Sequence record: SRR22947725_4314
Direction: 5' to 3' (one strand)
Length of the DNA stretch: 64,000 nt
A model generated the notes under the pieces. It did not search any database and was not told the origin of the DNA. It was given only the letters and a program-made list of their open reading frames with translations. Both the position numbers and the translations under genes were made by a program. Of the stretch, positions 8,000-18,879 are shown one piece after another. Every line of letters begins with the position of its first letter. Within the stretch, counting starts at the first letter, position 1.

Positions 8000-10900
8000 C
8001 TACTGCCGTCGACCGCTGAACAGATCGTTGCTCACGAACGAGCCGAAAATCTCTTCGAGGTCTCCCATCACCGGGTTCATCGAGGTCTCAAGGGCACCGA
8101 TCACCAGAGTGGGCTCAACTCGCTCGTCGAGCAGCTCGGGCCCAAACCTTTCGATGTGGTCGTGAACGAATCTGAGAGCTGCAGCTTGGGCGGTCTCGAC
8201 GTATCGACGAAGCTCAAGAGGCGCAGCCGTGCTTGAGTCACACATGACGCGCAGTCCGCGTGAGTCCGCGACAAAACGCGAGACTTGCGGATGTGCCGCA
8301 GAGCAGAGCAGCTCAAATTCCAACGCGCGTTCGTAGATCGGATTGGAGTTGCCGAATACAGCGTCGCGACCGAAGCAGCTCAATGCTGTGGAGCCCAGTT
8401 CGTTTGCTGCTGCGGTGGTGACGTAGTAGAGACCTGTCATCTGCTGATCGATGAGTGGGCTCAACGCCTTCTGGGTCGTGCCGGAATAGCCGAGATCCAC
8501 GAATCCGAGGTGTTCGTCCGGACCGATGTCGAGAAAGCTGAGGTATGCCCTGAATGCCGCCAACTCGCGCCCGCCGTGGGCCGCGATGTCGTGGCGGAAT
8601 TCGTCGAGTTGGTCTCTCAGCCATGCTGCGTCGCGTGGAAGTGAGACCGGGGTGGCGCCGAGTCGAGCGCCGCGGTCACCAGGAAGCGTGAAGCCGAGTC
8701 GTACGTCGAGAAGGTCACTGACGGAACCGTTGCTGTAGTCGGCAGCACAGACGTTGTCGAGGTGTTCTCCGTCATGCTGCGAGAGAGCCAGAGCGATCCG
8801 TCGAGACATGAAGAAGTAGTCGGCACGCGGGAGATCAGCCGGAAGGAATGGCCGAACACGGCGAAAAACCTCAAGAGCGAGGTGTCCGTCGCGCGCGGTG
8901 AATAGAAGGCGATCGATCTTGTGGTCTCGTGCCGTGTGTGTGAGCCAACTCACGAAACCTAGGGTGATTGGGCCGAGCACCCCGTATCCGAATTTCTCCA
9001 TTGCGGTGGTCTGAGGAGATTCTCCTGTTGGCCCCGGTCGTTGGGAGCCTGAGAAGAGGGCTGCGAGGCCATGCCCGCCGACCAGTTGCGTTCCCGTGCG
9101 AACCGCTGGCGCCAACTGCGAAGTGTTGACCCCCCAAAAATGGGCGACTGATCCAGGGGAGGGAATGTGAAACGTATTGATGCCGCGATCAGACGCCTGT
9201 TGAATGTCGGAGAATTCGTTATCGCCAATATGAAGCCAGCGACCAGGGGCGGGTGTTTCGAGCTCGCGGACGAGGTCCCACATGGAGCCGGTGTCTTTGC
9301 GCGCTCGACAGGCATTCGAGACGTAAAGGTCGTCGAGGAGATCACCTGCGCCGATCTCTGTCAGCAGCGCCTCGATGGCCTGAAGCGGTTGTGTCGTGTC
9401 CGTCATGAGGACGTACCGACGCGGCGGACCGTCAAGCCCACTCCGTTTCGATCGGTCATGCAGGAGCTCATCGATCAGCCAGGTCCGTGGAATTGCGACT
9501 CGATGTTCTAGATCCAACTCGAGCCGCTTGAGCTGGTTCAATCCTTCGGCTTGGGAAGGATGCTCGGCGCACGCTCGTGAGTAGATCTCATTCAGTGTCA
9601 CGTCGCCGGAAATCTCATTGCCTCGACGGAGTTGAGATTCTGACTCTCGACGGAGTTGAACTAACTGGTGCCCGGAGTGCGGCAGACGATTTAATACCGA
9701 CGGTGCTGCATCGAACTGGCGACTGAGCACGTCGAATAGTGCATCAGGGTCGAGTGCTGGACGGAGTAGGAGTGTGTCGAAGAGGTCGATGCTGACAAGG
9801 TCGGCCGATTGCAGCGCTGCGCGCAGTGCTTCGGGGTCCGACGCACCGAAATCGGGAGCGTTGCTGAGCGACCAATTCCGTCGCCATTGTGCGGCGGAAT
9901 AGTCGAACTCGACCGTGTCGAACCCAACAGACGCTGCGGCAGCAGGAATTGTTCGTTCGATGGCGTGTGCGAGCGTCCTGTCGGTCTGGCCATGTTCGCG
10001 ATCGAAGTCGCCGACGGTCAAACCGAGATCGAGGAGTGGTCGGAGGGCATCGACCTTTGCCCAGAACATTCCACCGACCGGGTACATGACGTAGCCGTGG
10101 GCTTGGCGATCATCAACACCGAGGCGTTCGTACAACTTGGCACCCACCGGGCCGTTGCCGAGCCAATGGTTGCCCCAATAGGGGAAGTGTTCCCAGTTCG
10201 GAGCCTGGACGACGCCGACGGTCGGGTCGTCGGCGAAGAGGCTCAGAATCGCGTCGACCCCCGGAGCCGACGGCAGGAGTGAGGTGACGAGATGGTTGCG
10301 CCAATCTGATTTCTCGTCGCCCGAGTACAGCGACTTCTTGGTGTGGAGGTGAAGCAGGTAGTCGTGATCGCGGACCTCTTCGGCGAACGAGCAGAGTAAC
10401 GGTGCGAAATTGCGACCTCGGTTCGGCGCCACTTTGACGATCCGAGATTGGTCCGGCCCAAGGACCGTGTCGATGATTCGATGTGCCTTGGACGCGTCGG
10501 CCCTACAGGTAACGCTGACGAGCAGCACCGGTGGAGCGGGCAGCAAGGGAAGCCGGCGGAGCAGTGACGGAAGAACGTCGAGGTAGTAGGCGTGGACCAT
10601 GACGACGATGTCCAGGTCCGCGAGTTCGAAGGGAGCTCTCACCCGGTGTTGTACGAGCTGTCGGCTGGCAGGCTGACCGATCGGTGCCACGCTGACGACT
10701 CGAGGGCGAATCAACTGATCATTCGCAGCGGCGTCCTGGTCGAGCCAATGGTCGAGCGGATGCTGATCGATGCCCGCTGCAGCGAGCTGCGACTGATAGT
10801 CGGCGTGGTCGAACATTGGGCTCGGGTTGTGCCCGGTGCGGTAGTAGTGCACCAGCGGTTGCATGCTGTCGAAGCTGGTGGCGTCGGATGCGTGTCTCTG

Positions 10901-11305
10901 CTGGTACCAGGCCTCGTCGAACCAACGTGACTCGATCGCTCGAAGGCCTGGGGCGACGACGTCGTGCACCTTCATTTGGGTCGCTGATGACTTAGCGGCG
11001 ACAACAGCTCGGTGAAAGTGTGTGAGGGCGGCCCCGCGCGCTTCGGGGTTCATGATGAGATACGCCGCCGTGTCGAAATCTGGACCGGGATCTCGTCCCT
11101 CAGCCTCGCCGTGGTTGAGGAAATGAACGAGTGGTTCCACGCCAGCACGCCTCACGTCGTCATTGGCGCCGAGGTACCACGTCGCATCGAAGTACGGCGA
11201 GATGGATATTGCGCGCCGGCGCCAACTCTCGACTATGGCCAACCTGATGCGTTGTGCGGTGGCTGTTGGGCTCGCAAAGCGGGCAAGTGATGCGATTCTG
11301 CTCAC
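8000..11305 (-). CDS. Multidomain RgpF (rhamnan synthesis F)-like plus HAD-like protein
   Basis: HAYYLD, NRGRNFAP, LHLHTKKS, GGMFW, TLAHAIER (RgpF-like); SIDLFDTLL, HIGDNEFSD, FVDLGYSGT (HAD-like); N-terminal FD..WY repeats. Confidence 0.85.
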   Translation of the reverse strand: MSRIASLARFASPTATAQRIRLAIVESWRRRAISISPYFDATWYLGANDDVRRAGVEPLVHFLNHGEAEGRDPGPDFDTAAYLIMNPEARGAALTHFHRAVVAAKSSATQMKVHDVVAPGLRAIESRWFDEAWYQQRHASDATSFDSMQPLVHYYRTGHNPSPMFDHADYQSQLAAAGIDQHPLDHWLDQDAAANDQLIRPRVVSVAPIGQPASRQLVQHRVRAPFELADLDIVVMVHAYYLDVLPSLLRRLPLLPAPPVLLVSVTCRADASKAHRIIDTVLGPDQSRIVKVAPNRGRNFAPLLCSFAEEVRDHDYLLHLHTKKSLYSGDEKSDWRNHLVTSLLPSAPGVDAILSLFADDPTVGVVQAPNWEHFPYWGNHWLGNGPVGAKLYERLGVDDRQAHGYVMYPVGGMFWAKVDALRPLLDLGLTVGDFDREHGQTDRTLAHAIERTIPAAAASVGFDTVEFDYSAAQWRRNWSLSNAPDFGASDPEALRAALQSADLVSIDLFDTLLLRPALDPDALFDVLSRQFDAAPSVLNRLPHSGHQLVQLRRESESQLRRGNEISGDVTLNEIYSRACAEHPSQAEGLNQLKRLELDLEHRVAIPRTWLIDELLHDRSKRSGLDGPPRRYVLMTDTTQPLQAIEALLTEIGAGDLLDDLYVSNACRARKDTGSMWDLVRELETPAPGRWLHIGDNEFSDIQQASDRGINTFHIPSPGSVAHFWGVNTSQLAPAVRTGTQLVGGHGLAALFSGSQRPGPTGESPQTTAMEKFGYGVLGPITLGFVSWLTHTARDHKIDRLLFTARDGHLALEVFRRVRPFLPADLPRADYFFMSRRIALALSQHDGEHLDNVCAADYSNGSVSDLLDVRLGFTLPGDRGARLGATPVSLPRDAAWLRDQLDEFRHDIAAHGGRELAAFRAYLSFLDIGPDEHLGFVDLGYSGTTQKALSPLIDQQMTGLYYVTTAAANELGSTALSCFGRDAVFGNSNPIYERALEFELLCSAAHPQVSRFVADSRGLRVMCDSSTAAPLELRRYVETAQAAALRFVHDHIERFGPELLDERVEPTLVIGALETSMNPVMGDLEEIFGSFVSNDLFSGRRQ

Positions 11306-11810: not shown

Positions 11811-12109
11811 CCGCGGAGCTCTCGGAGGACCTGGTCGATGCGTGAGCCGGCCCAAACTGGGACCGGTGCTGGTGCTCGAAACTCTGTGGCGCGGCGGGGT
11901 GGGATGACGGCGCCGGCGCCGATCAGTCGGTCGAGGTCGGGTGCGTCGGCATCGAGTGGACCGAGTTGAGCCGTCGGGCGTCCACTCGTCGTGATCACGG
12001 TGCGTTGGCCTGCCGAGGCTCGGCGGATGGCGTCAGTGAGTCCGGCGCGCAGCTCGCGAATGCCGACCGTTGGTGCCCCCGGCTCAGGAGTCAATGGTGA
12101 TGTGTACAC
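11807..12109 (-). CDS. Phd/YefM-family antitoxin
   Basis: TVGIRELRAGL...ASAGQRTVITTSGRPTAQL; upstream of and coupled to the PIN toxin; start uncertain (12109 or 12121). Confidence 0.85.
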   Translation of the reverse strand: MYTSPLTPEPGAPTVGIRELRAGLTDAIRRASAGQRTVITTSGRPTAQLGPLDADAPDLDRLIGAGAVIPPRRATEFRAPAPVPVWAGSRIDQVLRELRG

Positions 12110-12120
12110 AGGTGTACACA
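12101..12120. promoter_or_regulatory. Tandem TGTACA-core palindromes, likely TA autorepression operator
   Basis: TGTGTACACA-GGTGTACACA overlapping the antitoxin start. Confidence 0.75.
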
Positions 12121-12163
12121 ATCAGATTTGGCAACGTCATGCAAATGGACCATGATCTCACCC

Positions 12164-13270
12164 ATGAACTTTGCTTTCACCGAAGAACAAGAAGAGCTCC
12201 GCAAGACTGTGCGGGCCTTCCTCGAAGCCAAGAGCTCCGAAGAGGCCGTGCGTGAGCAGATGGAGACCGACAACGGTGTCGACGACGCCGTCTGGGCCCA
12301 GATGGGCGAGCAGATGGGTCTCCAGGGCCTGCACATCCCCGAAGAGTTCGGCGGATCGGGCTACGGCTACGTCGAGCTCGGCATCGTGCTTGAAGAGATG
12401 GGTCGCTCGCTGCTGTGTGCACCGTTCTTCTCGACCGTCGTCCTCGCTGCGAACGCATTGCTGCTTTCGGGCGACGACGCTGCCAAGCAGGCTCACCTGC
12501 CCGGCATTGCTGCTGGCACCACCAAGGCCACCGTTGCCTTCACCGAGCCGAACGGCAAGTGGGACGACTCTGGCATCGAAGCAACCGCTGATGCCGACGG
12601 CAAGATCACCGGCACGAAGAGCTTCGTGCTCGATGGCAACACCGCTGACCTGATCATCGTCGCTGCGAAGACCGCAGCAGGCACCAGCCTGTTCGCCGTC
12701 GACAGCAACGCTGCGGGCCTCACCAAGACCGCACTGTCCACGATGGATCAGACCCGCAAGCAGTCGAAGCTCGAATTCGACGGTGTGCAGGGCACGCTCA
12801 TCGGCACCGACGGTGGCGGCTGGGACATCCTGCAGGGGATGCTCGACCTCGCCGCAGTCAGCCTCGCTGCCGAGCAGGTCGGTGGCGCGCAGATGGTCCT
12901 CGAGATGGCTGTTGAGTACGCCAAGGTGCGTGTGCAGTTCGGTCGCCCGATCGGCTCGTTCCAGGCCATCAAGCACAAGTGCGCCGACATGCTCCTCGAA
13001 GTCGAGTCGGCCAAGTCCGCTGCCTACTACGGCATGTGGTGCGCTGCTGAGATGAACGACGAGCTCGCCTCGACCGCATCGCTCGCCAAGGCGTACTGCT
13101 CGGAGGCGTACTTCCACGCAGCAGCGGAGAACATCCAGATTCACGGTGGTATCGGCTTCACTTGGGAGCACCCGGCACATCTGTACTTCAAGCGTGCCAA
13201 GAGCTCTGAGCTTCTCTTCGGTGACCCGACCTATCACCGTGAGCAGCTTGCGCAGCGCATCGGTATCTGA
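12164..13270 (+). CDS. Acyl-CoA dehydrogenase
   Basis: MNFAFTEEQEELR, PEEFGG, RVQFGRPIGSFQAIKHK, IQIHGGIGFTWEH. Confidence 0.95.
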   Translation: MNFAFTEEQEELRKTVRAFLEAKSSEEAVREQMETDNGVDDAVWAQMGEQMGLQGLHIPEEFGGSGYGYVELGIVLEEMGRSLLCAPFFSTVVLAANALLLSGDDAAKQAHLPGIAAGTTKATVAFTEPNGKWDDSGIEATADADGKITGTKSFVLDGNTADLIIVAAKTAAGTSLFAVDSNAAGLTKTALSTMDQTRKQSKLEFDGVQGTLIGTDGGGWDILQGMLDLAAVSLAAEQVGGAQMVLEMAVEYAKVRVQFGRPIGSFQAIKHKCADMLLEVESAKSAAYYGMWCAAEMNDELASTASLAKAYCSEAYFHAAAENIQIHGGIGFTWEHPAHLYFKRAKSSELLFGDPTYHREQLAQRIGI

Positions 13271-13368
13271 CAACGACGTGACGCTCTGCGCCACGTAGCA
13301 ACTGTCTGCCGCCCGGCTCACTGTGTGGGTCGGGCGGTTGCGCGTCTTGACTCGTATCATTGCTATCG

Positions 13369-13830
13369 ATGGAGCCCGTAACGATTGTCTTTGCTGTCGC
13401 GTCGGCGTTGATCGTGTTTGCGATCGCTGCCGCGTCGGTTGGGCGAGAGGCGCACCGGCTCGATGCTGTGGCACCGCGGACGGTGTATCTGCTCGATGAA
13501 GCCACGGACTTTGTCTGTGACCGTTTGCCGGAGGAGAGCCAGGCACGCCTGACCCCCGAAGAGGTCCAGCAGCTGTTGGTGTTTCACATGCAGTGGCTGC
13601 ACTCACAGGGGTTGCAGCCCGATGACGTGGTGGATGTCCCGCAGGGCATCGACGAGACCCTGGTTGTTACCGAGGATTCGCTCACGGCGTATTTGCTCGG
13701 AGAGTCTGATCGGAACAACGTCGATTTGCTCGATGATGTCGATGCCGTGCATGTCGTCGAAGCGCACCTTGCGTACTTCGAGGCGATTGGTGCGGTTGGT
13801 CCGCAAGCGCCGCTTGATGACGTGATCTGA
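13369..13830 (+). CDS. Hypothetical membrane-anchored protein
   Basis: N-terminal TM helix followed by an acidic domain; TATCAT shortly upstream of the ATG. Confidence 0.75.
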   Translation: MEPVTIVFAVASALIVFAIAAASVGREAHRLDAVAPRTVYLLDEATDFVCDRLPEESQARLTPEEVQQLLVFHMQWLHSQGLQPDDVVDVPQGIDETLVVTEDSLTAYLLGESDRNNVDLLDDVDAVHVVEAHLAYFEAIGAVGPQAPLDDVI

Positions 13831-13846
13831 GAATTTCGAAATTCTC
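13829..13846. promoter_or_regulatory. Perfect 18-bp AT-rich palindrome
   Basis: GAGAATTTCGAAATTCTC equals its own reverse complement. Confidence 0.55.
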
Positions 13847-13918
13847 TGAAACCGGTCCGACATCGCCGTCGGCGGTGTGCTGAACTGTGCCCACCAGAGA
13901 GAGGAGGTGGTCCAGATA

Positions 13919-13963
13919 ATGCCAGACAGTTATTGCGGGATCCTGGAGGTGGTTGGCCGCTAG
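13919..13963 (+). CDS. Putative 14-aa peptide MPDSYCGILEVVGR
   Basis: AGGAGG at 13902-13907; frame conserved in the second copy. Confidence 0.55.
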   Translation: MPDSYCGILEVVGR

Positions 13964-14100
13964 GTCAACAGGCTGGATCGCCTGGCGAATTTAACGCCAA
14001 CCCCGCTGCAACTCATCGCCGCAAGTGATCCCGGTGGCGTGACGACGACATCGAGTGATGTCGTCGGCTCGTGATGAGTGCAGTCCCAAACAGTTGTGTT

Positions 14101-14134
14101 CGACGCCCGAGTGCCACCCGGTGCTCGGGCGTCG
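14101..14134 (+). terminator. Strong hairpin closing RNA copy 1
   Basis: CGACGCCCGAG / CTCGGGCGTCG perfect 11-bp stem, extendable; no long U-tract. Confidence 0.6.
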
Positions 14135-14212
14135 TCGCGTTCGCAGATGTCATTGCTGGTGTGTCAGCGCGCAATGAGTCCTGAGGGCTGCCGTCCAGTA
14201 ACTTTGCTGTTG

Positions 14213-14437
14213 ATGGATCATCACCCGAAGTTCGAAGAGAGCCGATTCCTGGGCGACAAGCGCACGCAGCTCGTTTACGACTTGCAATTGTGGGACGACG
14301 ACGACGTCATCAACGAGTTCGTCGGTCTCGGCGTCGCGCTGAGTTTCAGTCCGGATGAACTGCCCGAAGCCCGTAATCGCGGCTATACGCTGGCAACGCC
14401 CGGCAAGAAGCGTATGCGCCGCGCTCCACGAGCCTGA
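14213..14437 (+). CDS. Small hypothetical protein (74 aa), copy 1
   Basis: MDHHPKFEESRFLGDKRTQLVYDL...ARNRGY; paralog at 16842 with mainly synonymous or conservative changes. Confidence 0.85.
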   Translation: MDHHPKFEESRFLGDKRTQLVYDLQLWDDDDVINEFVGLGVALSFSPDELPEARNRGYTLATPGKKRMRRAPRA

Positions 14438-14452
14438 GGCGGCCATCCGATC

Positions 14453-15238
14453 ATGCCCGGGATGAACGAGCGGTTCGATTCGAACGGCCTGTCTCTCGCC
14501 TGTCATGTCGCCCGTCCACCAGGTGATGCTCGGCCCGGACCGGGCGTCATCCTGTGTCACGGCTTCCCAATCGGGCCGCTCGACGCGCAGCTGTCCGGCG
14601 GAACATTTCCCCAGCTGATGGATCGCGTCGCCAGCGGACTCGGCTCCGTGGCAATGACCTTCAATTTTCGGGGTTGTGGGGATAGCGCGGGCGACTTCTC
14701 TCTGCAGGGTTGGGTTGACGACCTACGGAACGCCATCTCGCATCTTCAGAGCGTGAGTGAACCGGACGGTGTGATTCTGGTTGGTACGAACACTGGTGGC
14801 TCGATTGCGGTGTGCGTCGGTGCTGACGATCCGCGAGTTTGTGCGGTGGGGTTGCTGAGCCCACGAGCCGACTTCGATGACTGGGCAGATCACCCGCGTC
14901 GCTTTCTTGAGCACGCCCGCGAGATCGGTGCGATTAAGCAGCGCCAGTTCCCTGATTCGGTCGACGAGTGGGCTCGCGAGTTCCGACGATTTCGGCCCGT
15001 AGCGTCAGCTCGCCGGTTTGCGCCGCGTCCGATGCTGGTGATGCACGGTGAAGAAGACGACTCGGTACCGGTGTCTGACGCACGACAGTTGGTCAACGCC
15101 CATGGCGATGCTGAGCTGAGTTTGTTTGTCGGTGCCGGTCATCGTCTACGTCACGATCCGCGTGCTGTGGCGGTACTTCTTGGCTGGCTTGACCGTATGC
15201 GGTCGGTGACTGTGCACCCCGCCGCCGAGATCGTATGA
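14453..15238 (+). CDS. Alpha/beta-hydrolase-fold protein, copy 1
   Basis: ILCHGFP, FNFRGCGDS.G, GTNTGG elbow, HGEEDDSVP, GAGH. Confidence 0.9.
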   Translation: MPGMNERFDSNGLSLACHVARPPGDARPGPGVILCHGFPIGPLDAQLSGGTFPQLMDRVASGLGSVAMTFNFRGCGDSAGDFSLQGWVDDLRNAISHLQSVSEPDGVILVGTNTGGSIAVCVGADDPRVCAVGLLSPRADFDDWADHPRRFLEHAREIGAIKQRQFPDSVDEWAREFRRFRPVASARRFAPRPMLVMHGEEDDSVPVSDARQLVNAHGDAELSLFVGAGHRLRHDPRAVAVLLGWLDRMRSVTVHPAAEIV

Positions 15239-15621
15239 CTATCAGCCCGCGGGCTTTTGGGCGTGATTGTCGTTCAGCGGCTGCGGTCGATTTGGCTGAT
15301 ACGCCACTCGTGGGCAATTCGAACGATGAGTTCCAAACCATGCCAAGTCGACCAGCCCAACGTTTTGAGTGCGCGATCGGGGTTCGCATAGGTCGATACG
15401 TGATTGCCGGCGCGGCGAGCGACGACCGTGTGAGATACGGAGCGCTGAGCAACCGCTGCAGTGGGGTTGATCACGTCGAATACGGATGAATCCGTGTCAG
15501 TGCTGACGGGGCTGCGGTCGACTCGGGTCGTCTTGGAGTTATCGCAGCAGTGAGAAAATCTTCAAAGATGATCCCACATAGTGGTCCGCGATGTGCCGGA
15601 CCCGACTAGCGAGAGTAAAGC

Positions 15622-15837
15622 TGGTCCAGATGTTGCCAGACAGTCATTGTGGGATCCGGGAGGTGGTTGGCCGCCGGTGACAGTTGCCACGGGTCAACAG
15701 GCCGGATCGCCTGGCGAATACACGCCAACCCCGCTGTCTCTCATCGCCGCAACCGATCCCAGCGGTGTGTTCGAACCGAATCGATCACTCGATCGTCACG
15801 GCTCGACTCTCGGTGAGGGCAGTCCCAATCAGTGTGT
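15622..15837 (+). ncRNA. Unidentified structured RNA element, copy 2
   Basis: Homologous to 13909-14098; indels fall in loops and variable arms. Confidence 0.65.
15630..15680 (+). CDS. Putative 16-aa peptide MLPDSHCGIREVVGRR
   Basis: In-frame homolog of 13919-13963; SD absent in this copy. Confidence 0.4.
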   Translation: MLPDSHCGIREVVGRR

Positions 15838-16749
15838 GCGCGCTCGGGATGATGGTTCGGGGTAAGGGTGAGTGGTACAGTTCTCCGGTCGGTGCTGAAC
15901 CGTGAAGACCATCGGACTGGTCCACGACGCCGGCACCTTGCGGAGCAGACTCAACAACCCGACGCGGTTGGCCGTGCGGGCGCCGACTTCGAGCACGCGA
16001 CTGTGTCGGTTGGCGAACTGCTCATCGGTCGAGAGCCGTTCGAGTGAGTCCGCTAGTCGGCCGGTCTCGAATTCGGCGGCGTAGCCGTTGTCATCTGCCC
16101 AGTTCCGCACTCCGCTCAATGTGATCCAGTTGAGGGAGCGCCACAGATCGGACTCCTTGATCCGGGCAGGAAGCAGTCGTTCGGTCGCTGCCGGCCGACT
16201 GGGGACGAGGAGCACTCCGAAATGGGGCTCGTAGGGGAACGTGTAGTTCGGGCAGGAAAGGTACATCGTTCCGTCGGGCGCCAAGACCGAACCGACAGCA
16301 TCCATTGCGCCGCGCCAGTCGGGCACATGCTCCAGAACGTTCAGGGAGTAGATCAGGTCGAATTCGCCATGGGTGGCAGGGTCGAGCGATTCAGCTCCGA
16401 TGTCGAGGAGCCGGGGTGCCGGCTCGAACGGGGGAAGTGCCGCGCGGGTGGCACCGATGAACTCGAATGCTGACCCGACCGGTTCGAGCTCGACCACGTC
16501 GTAGCCCTGCGAGCACAGAAAGCCGGCAAAGAACCCGATCCCACTGCCGATCTCCAGGACCCGCGTGTCGGGCTGAAGGCGCGGCTCGATCAGTTCGAGC
16601 GCGACTCAGGACTCGTTGACGTAGGTCGAGAGTTGTTCGGTTGCCTCCCCGAGTGGGATCTCGAGCGACCGAGCGATCGACTCTGCGATGTCGTCGAGGG
16701 CCAATGCCTCGATCGCGGCGCCCAGTTGATTGCTCAGATCTGTCGTCAT
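15829..16749 (-). pseudogene. Class I SAM methyltransferase interrupted by in-frame TGA at 16606-16608
   Basis: ...YVNES*VALELIEPRLQPDTRVLEIGSGIGFF... continues in frame into ORF 15829-16497 (NVLEHV, PNYTFPYEPHF). Confidence 0.75.
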
Positions 16750-16841
16750 CGGCAACAGACTATTCAGATCGGATGCCATCCGGAAGCTTCGCGGGGCCAC
16801 GCGACTGTGATCCGTCCGACGAGTACCAGGTAGCTTCGAGA

Positions 16842-17069
16842 GTGTTGGATCATCACCCGAAGTTCGAACACAGCGGGTTTCTCGGCGACAAGCGCACGCA
16901 GCTCGTCTACGGCCTCGAGTCATGGGACGACGACGATGTGATCAACGAATTCGTCGAGCTCGGTGTGGCGCTCAGTTTCGGCCCCGACGAACTCGCCGAG
17001 GCACGCAATCGGGGTTACACACTGGCAACGCCCGGCAAGAGCCGCATGAAGCGAGCGCCGCGGGCCTGA
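16842..17069 (+). CDS. Small hypothetical protein, copy 2
   Basis: VLDHHPKFEHSGFLGDKRTQLVY...; paralog of 14213. Confidence 0.85.
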   Translation: MLDHHPKFEHSGFLGDKRTQLVYGLESWDDDDVINEFVELGVALSFGPDELAEARNRGYTLATPGKSRMKRAPRA

Positions 17070-17088
17070 GCCCGCGCACAGGTTCCAC

Positions 17089-17877
17089 ATGCCCGGCATG
17101 AACGACCGGTTCTCCTCGAGCGGTCTGTCGCTCGCCTGCCACATCGCTCGCCCGCCAGGGGAGGTGCGGCCAGGGCCGGGTGTCATCCTGTGTCACGGAT
17201 TTCCGATCGGGCCGCTCGACGCCCAGCTCTCCGGAGGCACGTTCCCGCAGTTGATGGATCGCGTGGCCAGTGGTCTCGGCTGCGTCGCTATGACGTTCAA
17301 CTTCCGAGGCTGTGGCGACAGTGAAGGTGACTTTTCTCTGCAGGGCTGGGTCGACGATTTGCGCAACGCCATCACGCACCTCATGTCAGTCAGCAACCCG
17401 ACCGGCGTCATCGTGGTCGGCACCAACACGGGCGGCTCGATCGCAGTGTGTGTCGGCGCCGACGACCCGCAGGTGAGTGCCGTCGGGCTGTTGAGCCCGC
17501 GGGCCGACTTCGACGATTGGGCCGACCATCCGCGGAGGTTTCTCGAACACGCCCGAGAAATCGGCGCGATCAAGAACCGGCAGTTCCCGCCGTCGGTCGA
17601 CGAATGGGCTCGCGAGTTCCGTCGATTCCGTCCGGTCGCCTCAGCGCGCCGGTTTGCGCCGCGGCCCATGCTGGTGATGCACGGCGAAGACGACGATTCG
17701 GTACCGGTCACCGACGCACGTCAGCTCGTGACGGCGCACGGCGATGCCGAACTCAGCCTGTTCGTGGGTGCGGGGCACCGTTTGCGCCACGACCCGCGTG
17801 CCGTGGCGGTGTTGATCGGCTGGCTCGACCGGATGCGTTCCACCACGGTGCATCCGAGCGCCGAACTGGTCGACTGA
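17089..17877 (+). CDS. Alpha/beta-hydrolase-fold protein, copy 2
   Basis: Near-identical protein to 14453-15238. Confidence 0.9.
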   Translation: MPGMNDRFSSSGLSLACHIARPPGEVRPGPGVILCHGFPIGPLDAQLSGGTFPQLMDRVASGLGCVAMTFNFRGCGDSEGDFSLQGWVDDLRNAITHLMSVSNPTGVIVVGTNTGGSIAVCVGADDPQVSAVGLLSPRADFDDWADHPRRFLEHAREIGAIKNRQFPPSVDEWAREFRRFRPVASARRFAPRPMLVMHGEDDDSVPVTDARQLVTAHGDAELSLFVGAGHRLRHDPRAVAVLIGWLDRMRSTTVHPSAELVD

Positions 17878-17883
17878 ACCCGA

Positions 17884-18879
17884 TCAGCGCGAGCCGTCGA
17901 GTTGAGCGCTGTGCCACTCGTACGCGGTCTTCACGATGGCCTCGAGACCGTGCTGAGCACTCCACCCGAGTGTCTGTGCAGCGAAGTCGGGGTCGGCGAA
18001 CGTGGCAACCGGGTCGCCGGCGCGTCGCTCGGTGACGACGTGGGGCACCGATGTGCCCGCGACCGCTTCGGTTGCCCGGATCACGTCGTACACCGATGAA
18101 CCCTGGCCCGTGCCAACATTGACGGCGGTGCTCGCTCCGCCGTTGCCCAGATAGGTGAGCGCCTTGACATGCGCGTCGGCGAGGTCCTCGACGTGGATGT
18201 AGTCGCGGATGCAGGTGCCGTCCGGCGTGTCGTAGTCGTCGCCGAACACCTTGAGCTCGACATCGTCGAGCAACAGTGCCTTCATCGCGAGGGGAATCAA
18301 GTTGAAGCTGTACGTCCAGTCCTCACCGATGCGACCGTCGAAGCTGGCCCCCGCGGCATTGAAGTAGCGGAGGCTGACCGAGTTGAGGCCGTTGGTGACG
18401 CCGTACCAGGACAGGATCTTCTCGACCATCGCCTTCGACTCGGCGTACACGCTTTCGGGATGAATGGCAGCATCTTCGGTGACCGGAACCACCTCAGGTG
18501 TGCCGTTGACCGAGCACGACGAGGAGAACACAACGTCACGAATGCCGGTGGCGAGACAGGCTTCGACGAGGTCGACGGTGCCGGCCACGTTGTTGCGCCA
18601 GTACTTCGCAGGAGTCTCCATCGATTCGCCCACGGCCTTGTAGGCAGCGAAGTGCACGAGTTGGGTGACGCCGTACTCGTTGCAGGTCGCCGTCACGAGA
18701 TCCTGGTCGGCGATGTTGCCGACCACGAGCGGGGCGTCGATCACCGCCTCGCGTCGACCCAGTTCCAGCGAGTCGAGGACGACCACGTCGCGGCCGGCCT
18801 CGCGCAGCGAACGAACGGTGTGCGAACCGATGTAGCCAGCGCCGCCGGTGACGAGGACCGTGCCGTCGAGTGAGTTCAT
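17884..18879 (-). CDS. galE: UDP-glucose 4-epimerase
   Basis: VTGGAGYIGSHT, HFAAYKAVGES, YAESK, LRYFNAAGA, DGTCIRDYIHVEDLA. Confidence 0.95.
   Translation of the reverse strand: MNSLDGTVLVTGGAGYIGSHTVRSLREAGRDVVVLDSLELGRREAVIDAPLVVGNIADQDLVTATCNEYGVTQLVHFAAYKAVGESMETPAKYWRNNVAGTVDLVEACLATGIRDVVFSSSCSVNGTPEVVPVTEDAAIHPESVYAESKAMVEKILSWYGVTNGLNSVSLRYFNAAGASFDGRIGEDWTYSFNLIPLAMKALLLDDVELKVFGDDYDTPDGTCIRDYIHVEDLADAHVKALTYLGNGGASTAVNVGTGQGSSVYDVIRATEAVAGTSVPHVVTERRAGDPVATFADPDFAAQTLGWSAQHGLEAIVKTAYEWHSAQLDGSR

Follow-up and report, generated by a model that had tools for sequence, protein, structure and literature searches.

Ms_IGR-5 (RF02471) is among the few small RNAs (sRNAs) that are conserved across actinobacteria. 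According to those parts of the published reports that were available, it was validated by RNA-seq as an sRNA in S. lividans (PMC8079986) and listed as an sRNA transcription unit in S. avermitilis (PMC8780764), while in M. smegmatis it overlaps ncMSMEG15794c (PMC10454040), lies between MSMEG_5794 and MSMEG_5795 and is partly NAD-capped (bioRxiv 10.1101/2021.12.14.472595). Ribosome footprints have also been reported on its homologues in M. abscessus and M. smegmatis (PMC4974804). Although it is expressed in both Mycobacterium and Streptomyces, the RNA has been termed 'validated but yet uncharacterized' (bioRxiv 10.1101/2021.12.14.472595), and the available portions of the literature on Ms_IGR-5/RF02471, the original description aside, contain no functional study and no account of the features described here. 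The present locus consists of two related stretches, copy 1 (13893-14140) and its paralogue copy 2 (15607-15837), both on the plus strand of a 64,000-nucleotide (nt) piece of DNA from sequence record SRR22947725_4314, which is called the window below. It is near certain that both stretches represent a divergent Acidimicrobiia-type branch of the actinobacterial sRNA Ms_IGR-5, lying beyond the Rfam threshold. Taken as a whole, the locus is best explained, with a probability of about 0.6, as a ribosome-engaged, translation-gated bistable sRNA of this family.

Other RNAs in which translation and structure are intertwined share some of these traits. Leader-peptide attenuators of the trp and erm type carry a translated short open reading frame (ORF) that overlaps mutually exclusive helices; the position of the ribosome selects the fold, and a terminator follows. 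The window RNA likewise has a short ORF lying over exclusive helices and a terminator hairpin, but it shows no visible conserved anti-terminator and no recurring regulatory codons, and in most clades no same-strand gene follows the family RNA. Dual-function sRNAs, such as SgrS/SgrT, RNAIII/hld and SR1/SR1P, encode a conserved peptide with a function of its own. The window RNA resembles them as a stand-alone sRNA gene with a small ORF whose translation is predicted, whereas its peptide is variable, its ORF lies inside what appear to be regulatory helices, and no base-pairing target is known. Transfer-messenger RNA (tmRNA), too, is structured, with pairings of the pseudoknot type, and ribosomes engage a short ORF within it; unlike tmRNA, the window RNA has no tRNA-like domain, and its ORF has a Shine-Dalgarno (SD) sequence and a start codon of its own.

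The closest likeness is with Ms_IGR-5 itself (M. smegmatis IGR-5, ncMSMEG15794c). In both, a purine-rich leader is followed by GGAGGUGGUCC and a short ORF ending E-V-x-x-R/S-stop, then by one or more hairpins, CUGGCGAA, a strand pairing back to GGUGG, and a terminator, so the architecture of docking SD, mini-ORF in a hairpin (P1), long-range helix (P2) and terminator is common to the two. Both forms are also usually single-copy. However, the Acidimicrobiia form is extended by a 3' domain of stems d and e, a loop of which pairs either with the ORF or with stem b's loop, whereas the mycobacterial form passes straight from P2 into the terminator, and the window has a second, truncated copy. A scan of window positions 12000-18000 against Rfam at E <= 1, which had been proposed along with an earlier interpretation made from the letters alone (the sequence-only reading), returned three matches, every one sub-threshold, and no riboswitch or other family. 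The relevant one was RF02471 on copy 1 (13893-14089; 21.3 bits, E 0.095, against a gathering cut-off of 45 bits), while copy 2 gave no RF02471 match; the other two were a match to Scr6925 at 27.6 bits (threshold 50), overlying the terminator region, and a retroviral signal at another place. ARAGORN found no tmRNA or tRNA gene in 13000-16500. The sequence-only reading had not recognised it as any riboswitch, SRP, RNase P, tmRNA or 6C RNA; the novelty this implied does not hold, as the RNA is a divergent relative of RF02471.

Homologue collection and a covariance model, also proposed at that time, gave model R1, built from 47 Acidimicrobiia-type sequences. R1 scores 133.4 bits on copy 1 (13889-14050) and 88.9 bits on copy 2, with no further copies across the 64-kb window. 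It also matches the mycobacterial RF02471 site in genome G003 (44.6 bits); reciprocally, RF02471 matches the R1 site in G019 (38.2 bits) as well as those in G012 and G023, all sub-cut-off. A pattern search with three motifs common to both copies matched at least 120 loci, from Mycobacterium, Nocardioides, Rhodococcus, Streptosporangiales and many Acidimicrobiia metagenome-assembled genomes (MAGs). RF02471 scored above its cut-off in 13 of 18 tested pattern loci (190 down to 49 bits), and the scores are graded, with 190 bits in Mycobacterium, 128 in Rhodococcus, 113-124 in Nocardioides, 65-72 in Streptosporangiales and 49-58 in the Acidimicrobiales loci L001 and L003. The other five tested loci gave no match, including the Ilumatobacteraceae-type L024, L007 and L014, which are the most window-like. 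Because R1 and RF02471 detect each other's sites and the scores are graded, the window RNA is placed as a divergent branch of a catalogued family; because the copies and their Ilumatobacter-type relatives fall under the cut-off, it is classed as a relative or sister branch and not as an Rfam member. For the window alone the result is modest, namely a divergent, duplicated instance of a catalogued family, while for the family it shows that much of the Acidimicrobiia branch goes undetected by the Rfam model.

Copy 1 is near certain, as judged from sequence comparison, to be a self-contained unit of promoter, 18-nt complement of the 16S tail, 14-codon ORF, conserved multi-helix fold and terminator hairpin. 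Its predicted start lies at about 13893, and similarity to relatives and their contigs begins at 13892/13893. The predicted promoter (13857-13886, plus strand) comprises a -35-like CCGACA (13857-13862) and an extended -10 element, TGTGC-TGAACT (13876-13886); a box of the TGTGCTGAA(C/A)T type stands 6-8 nt 5' of the conserved ACCAGAG in most of 23 relatives, and the extended -10 box common to relatives is of the TGTGCTGAACT type. At the other end, a GC-rich, terminator-like hairpin with a stem of about 15 bp and no U tract spans 14101-14134 (plus strand), and in the equivalent hairpin of relatives 7 of 11 pairs have changed on both sides (20 sequences). A generic sigma-70 promoter scan found nothing and a generic terminator scan, which needs a T run, found none; actinobacterial -10 boxes and U-less terminators lie outside their rules. 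The conserved promoter-like box and the terminator hairpin of copy 1, both lacking in copy 2, would fit an independent transcript.

Between the predicted start and the ORF lies a segment that could dock the ribosome (13898-13915, plus strand), an extended SD with element A at its 3' end. Duplexfold predicts 18 contiguous pairs, two of them G-U, between this segment and the 16S tail CUGGAUCACCUCCUUUCU, at -33.6 kcal/mol; the tail was taken from the relative genome G001, where it occurs once, at the 3' end of the small-subunit rRNA. The same duplex calculated for the regions upstream of 69 long window ORFs reaches -17.8 kcal/mol at best, and its median is -6.2 kcal/mol. In addition, some of the 12 members found by RF02471 alone carry GGUGAUCC, an exact complement of the tail.

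The mini-ORF of copy 1, MPDSYCGILEVVGR, starts with ATG at 13919 and runs to 13963 on the plus strand, with 14 codons and a TAG stop. In all 120 pattern matches listed, a start or near-cognate codon stands in the E-V frame 8-12 nt after GGAGG, and in 119 of the 120 the stop comes five codons after GAG; the distance from SD to ORF shifts the frame in 50 of the 120 listed loci, yet the start-type codon stays in frame. For a pooled set, 156 of 166 loci were parsed by regular expression and two mis-parsed ones were dropped, giving 114 distinct ORFs, mostly of 12-15 codons with one of 21. None of them has an in-frame stop, while the other two frames have stops in 80 and 86. Start codons are ATG (54), TTG (33), CTG (19), GTG (3), ATA (2), ATT (2) and ATC (1). 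The peptide is far less constant than the frame: there are 98 distinct peptides among the 114 ORFs, and residues 2-6 vary freely. The recurrent residues coincide with RNA pairing elements and alter when the helices alter (EVVGR, EVAGR, EVRGR, EVTAG), and synonymous positions are kept in codons that overlap those elements. The same layout is seen in the 12 members found by RF02471 alone, which are free of pattern bias. It is therefore near certain, as far as sequence comparison can tell, that start, frame and stop are conserved across the phylum and that the peptide varies except where RNA pairing fixes its codons.

The fold was assessed in alignments of 47 sequences (A3), 20 Ilumatobacteraceae-type sequences (A2) and 35 model-sampled sequences (A4). 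Helix P1 (13894-13946, plus strand) consists of P1a (13894-13897/13943-13946) and P1b, the pairing of elements A and B (13909-13913/13938-13942), with the docking core in its internal loop and the start codon in its apical part. P1a, which joins the 5' end with the codons before GAG, is 97.8-100% paired with two-sided changes in 2 of 4 pairs, and it appears across clades as CCAG:CUGG, CCGA:UCGG, CCAA:UUGG, CACA:UGUG, CACG:CGUG and CUUC:GAAG; P1b is 99% paired and has wobble changes only. The long-range helix P2 (13948-13957/13996-14004), whose 5' strand is the second GGAGGUGG plus the last codons, pairs GGUGG and those codons with the strand after GCGAA. It is 91% paired, with two-sided changes in 7 of 10 pairs among the 35 model-sampled sequences and in 2 of 10 among the 47, and its variants include GGUGCGCGG:CCGCCGCACC, GGUACGCGG:CCGCCGUACC and GGCGACUGG:CCAGAUCGCC.

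Local stems between 13952 and 13999 compete with P2. Stem a (13952-13958/13963-13969) has the stop codon in its loop and is paired in 94% of cells with one-sided changes only (20 sequences). Stem b (13969-13973/13980-13984) has three inner pairs that are 100% paired, one of them with a two-sided change (20 sequences), and its loop is element C (13973-13982). Stem c (13983-13987/13995-13999) is 43% paired in the 20-sequence alignment and 88% in the 47-sequence alignment; the low figure arises because copy 1 is shifted there by one base. The 3' domain (14006-14083) contains stem d (14006-14016/14074-14083; 89% paired, 9 of 10 pairs changed on both sides in 20 sequences), a variable hairpin, and stem e (14017-14022/14034-14039), which is 97.5-98% paired with two-sided changes in 2 of 6 pairs (20 sequences) or 5 of 5 (35 model-sampled) and whose loop presents element D, GATCCC (14027-14032). 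Stems a-e had all been drawn in the sequence-only reading, and all are present and recur in relatives, most of them with compensatory changes, so the claim of a structured RNA is supported; their positions were right, but a/b, b/c and d/e as drawn overlap by 1-2 nt. That reading overlooked that 18 nt can pair with the 16S tail, that there is a helix P2, and that the loop of stem e has other possible partners.

A pairing between loop D and the ORF had also been claimed. Six base pairs of it, B:D (13937-13942/14027-14032), recur in relatives at 96.5-98% pairing, with 98% of cells paired and two-sided changes in 2 of 6 pairs in the 20-sequence alignment. The seventh pair, whose C-G to U-A swap had been taken as compensatory and synonymous, is paired in only 25 of 47 relatives and is not conserved. 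Stronger compensation comes from the helix as a whole, which reads GGGAUC/GAUCCC in both window copies and GGGACC/GGUCCC in 44 of the 47 sequences; B:D is thus compensated in the window lineage and, independently, in L078 (GUGAC:GUCAC). Loop D may instead kiss the loop of stem b. This C:D pairing is 91.5% paired and is compensated in the window and in L064/L088 (GGACG:CGUCC); L078 compensates B:D only and L064/L088 compensate C:D only. Element A could in turn pair with C (95% paired, 0 of 9 pairs with two-sided changes). Element C matches the 16S tail at 9 of 10 nt; because it is nearly identical to the tail, the RNA holds both a complement and a copy of it. Region 4 has two possible partners, region 1 (forming P2) and region 3 (forming stem c); compensation is P2-only in L030, L148 and L149 and stem c-only in L131 and L133-135. 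Two nested states of copy 1 are predicted at -110.7 and -111.6 kcal/mol, less than 1 kcal/mol apart, with the minimum free energy (MFE) at -112.3. It is near certain from these comparisons that there are two exclusive helix sets, P2 against stems a and c, and A:B with C:D against A:C with B:D; since both sets show compensatory changes, each is probably under selection.

Copy 2 keeps the ORF and the core fold. The homology of the two gaps, which had been claimed, is borne out by a mean column identity of 82% over 258 alignment columns; by segment, identity is highest between the ORF and region 4 (81-91%), lower in the 3' hairpin domain (77%), and drops to 53% over the 5' leader with the SD and to 44% over the variable hairpin. 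The short ORFs reported for both copies are true open frames; that of copy 2, MLPDSHCGIREVVGRR, occupies 15630-15680 (plus strand), and its stop has been moved by one codon by a 15-nt insertion, which is located in the loop of stem a as had been stated. Element B (15651-15656), P2, stems a-e and element D (15755-15760) are retained, and in stem d the two copies differ by one compensated pair. The equivalence of the copies that had been assumed fails, however, as copy 2 has no -10 box (CGGACC instead of TGAACT), no 5' strand of P1a, no ribosome-docking segment and no terminator. Its GGAGG docking core is missing and its duplex with the 16S tail reaches only -17.6 kcal/mol; the fold of the region downstream contains no strong hairpin, and copy 2 ends directly against the stop codon of a convergent methyltransferase gene. 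The folding energy of copy 1 beats that of shuffled sequences (MFE z = -3.8), while that of copy 2 is no better than shuffles (z = +0.75). The 368-nt spacer 5' of copy 2, with its ORFs, has no relatives among the collected loci. Copy 2 may be decaying after duplication, or it may be a ribosome-blind variant whose transcription comes from upstream.

The sequence-only reading had suggested a translation-coupled switch or a dual-function sRNA, which is reasonable insofar as the ORF keeps its start position, frame and stop and is enclosed in helices that a translating ribosome would need to open. In the translation-gated mechanism proposed here, a free 30S subunit would dock on the long complement of its 16S tail in competition with the RNA's own copy of the tail (element C); docking and translation of the mini-ORF would open P1 and P2, and the RNA would flip to the alternative fold, so that its conformation would report ribosome engagement. 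The selected property would be the act of translation and not the peptide, and the downstream output could be a trans target, a protein partner or ribosome titration. This mechanism, taken by itself, is judged plausible at somewhat less than even odds. A wider and rather unlikely reading is that, across the phylum, the family senses free ribosomal small subunits or acts as a sponge for them. Docking and a short round of translation would then toggle A:B with C:D against A:C with B:D, and P2 against stems a and c; the shape of the RNA and its trans partners would track spare translation capacity, and copy 2 might be a ribosome-blind version of the effector, possibly forming the 3' end of the hydrolase operon transcript. 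If the RNA does read ribosome availability, this phylum, which lacks Hfq, would have a new type of riboregulator. The anatomy offers testable hypotheses in any case, namely the exceptionally long complement of the 16S tail, the internal copy of that tail, the conservation of translation rather than peptide, and the two exclusive helix sets.

Several points weigh against this interpretation. Nothing in the analysis points to an output. As many as 24 of the 114 ORFs start with CTG, ATT, ATC or ATA, and the lineages concerned may therefore translate the ORF poorly or not at all. Nor are complements of the 16S tail unique in their genomes, the 12-nt version occurring 1-6 times per genome against 0-6 times for a reversed control, and uniqueness was therefore dropped as an argument. 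A:C shows no two-sided change because element A is invariant, and the conservation of element A could reflect A:B or ribosome binding alone. The model-sampled alignment, which gives the highest counts for P2 and stem e, was fitted to the model structure (P1, P2, stem e); many other sequences were gathered with a pattern that fixes three motifs, so that only the 35 and the 12 model-found sequences are free of that bias, and the shuffle controls are inflated by kinship among the sequences. Expression is hinted at only by RNA contigs over 13893-13971, including a 79-nt RNA-library contig from one marine metatranscriptome run that covers this interval with one difference. Summed RNA contig depth there is 25-49, against 0-29 in neighbouring genes, but the hint is weak, as the contigs mix relatives and do not show transcript ends, and the library may hold DNA. 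The interval 15616-15867 is covered by DNA contigs of X3 and X1 but by no RNA contigs of runs X12 and X18, an absence that proves nothing.

Since the RNA is followed on the same strand by a 74-codon gene (14213-14437) and an alpha/beta-hydrolase gene (14453-15238), it might act in cis in this lineage, as a translation-sensing attenuator of read-through into both. The layout of mini-ORF, alternative helices and terminator does resemble that of leader-peptide attenuators, and a profile search finds a homologue of the 74-aa protein in 36 loci. Of the 35 Acidimicrobiia-type loci with a tblastn match, a few of which are the same genome listed twice, 30 carry its gene immediately 3' of the RNA on the same strand, starting 120-360 nt beyond the docking site. 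This gene is usually followed by the hydrolase, with protein identities down to 41-50%. However, inspection revealed no conserved anti-terminator opposed to the terminator stem, although no formal search was made, and the sequence 5' of the terminator is the least conserved part, with 44% identity between the copies. In 4 loci the 74-aa gene is 1-4.7 kb away, and neither the CTG-start Acidimicrobiales loci nor any of the collected loci of Mycobacterium, Nocardioides or Streptomyces type have it as a neighbour; in 29 Mycobacterium-type loci the next downstream gene lies on the opposite strand. Because the upstream genes are syntenic too, the 74-aa neighbour may reflect mere conserved gene order. 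A role as cis-acting leader is thus held to be unlikely; the neighbour data keep it alive for this lineage and argue against it as the general function of the family.

The kept start, frame and stop, the strong SD and the recurrent C-terminal E-V-x-x-R/S could also be expected of a small-protein gene, whose product would be the 12-16-residue peptide and whose RNA structure would only tune its synthesis. This is improbable in view of the diversity of the peptides, whose conserved residues are the pairing elements (B, the second GGAGGUGG, P2) and change with the helix, of the conserved synonymous sites, and of some 200 nt of conserved structure outside the ORF. An ordinary non-coding, trans-acting sRNA, in which the ORF would be incidental and the apparent SD only a helix strand or a seed for G/C-rich targets, would agree with the description of the family as an sRNA, still uncharacterised according to the available part of that report (bioRxiv 10.1101/2021.12.14.472595), and with conserved unpaired segments such as CUGGCGAA. 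It sits poorly with the lack of in-frame stops in one frame alone, with the start-type codon that stays in frame as the SD distance shifts, and with the ribosome footprints indicated for the family in the accessible text of PMC4974804, and it is as improbable as the small-protein gene. Lastly, two copies 1.7 kb apart, the second degraded-looking at both ends, might recall the relic of a repeat or mobile element, or a chance likeness of two GC-rich spacers; given that the RNA is single-copy in nearly all relatives, has no third copy in the window, and shows conserved synteny and covarying helices, this has a negligible probability. The ribosome-engaged, translation-gated sRNA remains the preferred explanation.

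The distribution of the RNA agrees with a single-copy gene. R1 was positive in 73 of 151 sampled genomes of the class, 71 of them with one match and 2 with a weak second one, and one copy per genome was found in all five genomes checked; G151 and G133 were rejected as paralogue carriers, as their second model matches (24.8 and 21.6 bits) were too poor. In a phylum-wide sample of 151 genomes RF02471 had matches in 44, of which 20 passed the cut-off (the tally includes four genomes flagged as unpublished, G156, G172, G200 and G267), and it had none in 14 control genomes. In G175, two good-scoring copies (L172 and L173; 52.9 and 43.3 bits) with intact docking sites lie on separate contigs, and may be true paralogues or come from two strains in one bin. 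Pattern matches were also seen on contigs labelled as Eisenbacteria, Acidobacteriota and Gammaproteobacteria MAGs (L009, L032 and L054), which may be mis-binned actinobacterial contigs or relatives outside the phylum; the ORF of L009 is atypical, with 21 codons. The closest relatives of the window RNA and the homologues of its 74-aa neighbour are labelled Ilumatobacter or Ilumatobacteraceae.

The gene order in the window is acyl-CoA dehydrogenase, a 156-aa membrane-anchored hypothetical protein, copy 1, the 74-aa hypothetical protein, the alpha/beta hydrolase, copy 2 and the convergent methyltransferase. Some of the Acidimicrobiia share this block. The 74-aa protein, with an acidic centre and a basic tail, has 1076 homologues. 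The 156-aa protein (13360-13830, plus strand), which has an N-terminal hydrophobic helix, keeps its syntenic place before the sRNA in about 30 loci, with identities of 27-89%. Neither protein belongs to a Pfam or NCBIfam family, and the protein atlas gives only unnamed actinobacterial clusters for them. In Mycobacterium-type loci the upstream neighbour is a class IV aminotransferase, and the downstream one is a convergent gene of THAP4-like (nitrobindin-type) character.

Just 3' of the stop of the 156-aa gene, and about 50-60 nt 5' of the predicted sRNA start, lies a 16-nt perfect palindrome, AGAATTTC/GAAATTCT (13830-13845), and at least 10 of 23 relatives have a GAATTCTCGAAA-type motif at this distance too. 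It is a candidate regulator site for the sRNA promoter. A weaker palindrome precedes copy 2, at about 15563-15582. One marine-metagenome DNA contig has 930 extra letters between 13830 and 13838; such an insertion between upstream gene and promoter in some relatives fits the variable distance to the upstream gene across loci. Further upstream, at 8000-11305 on the minus strand, an ORF of 1101 aa carries a rhamnan synthesis protein F (RgpF) domain, which points to a cell-wall polysaccharide locus. The best sequence matches of the locus are found in marine metagenomes, where the 891-nt DNA contig of X3 is near-identical, with 7 differences.

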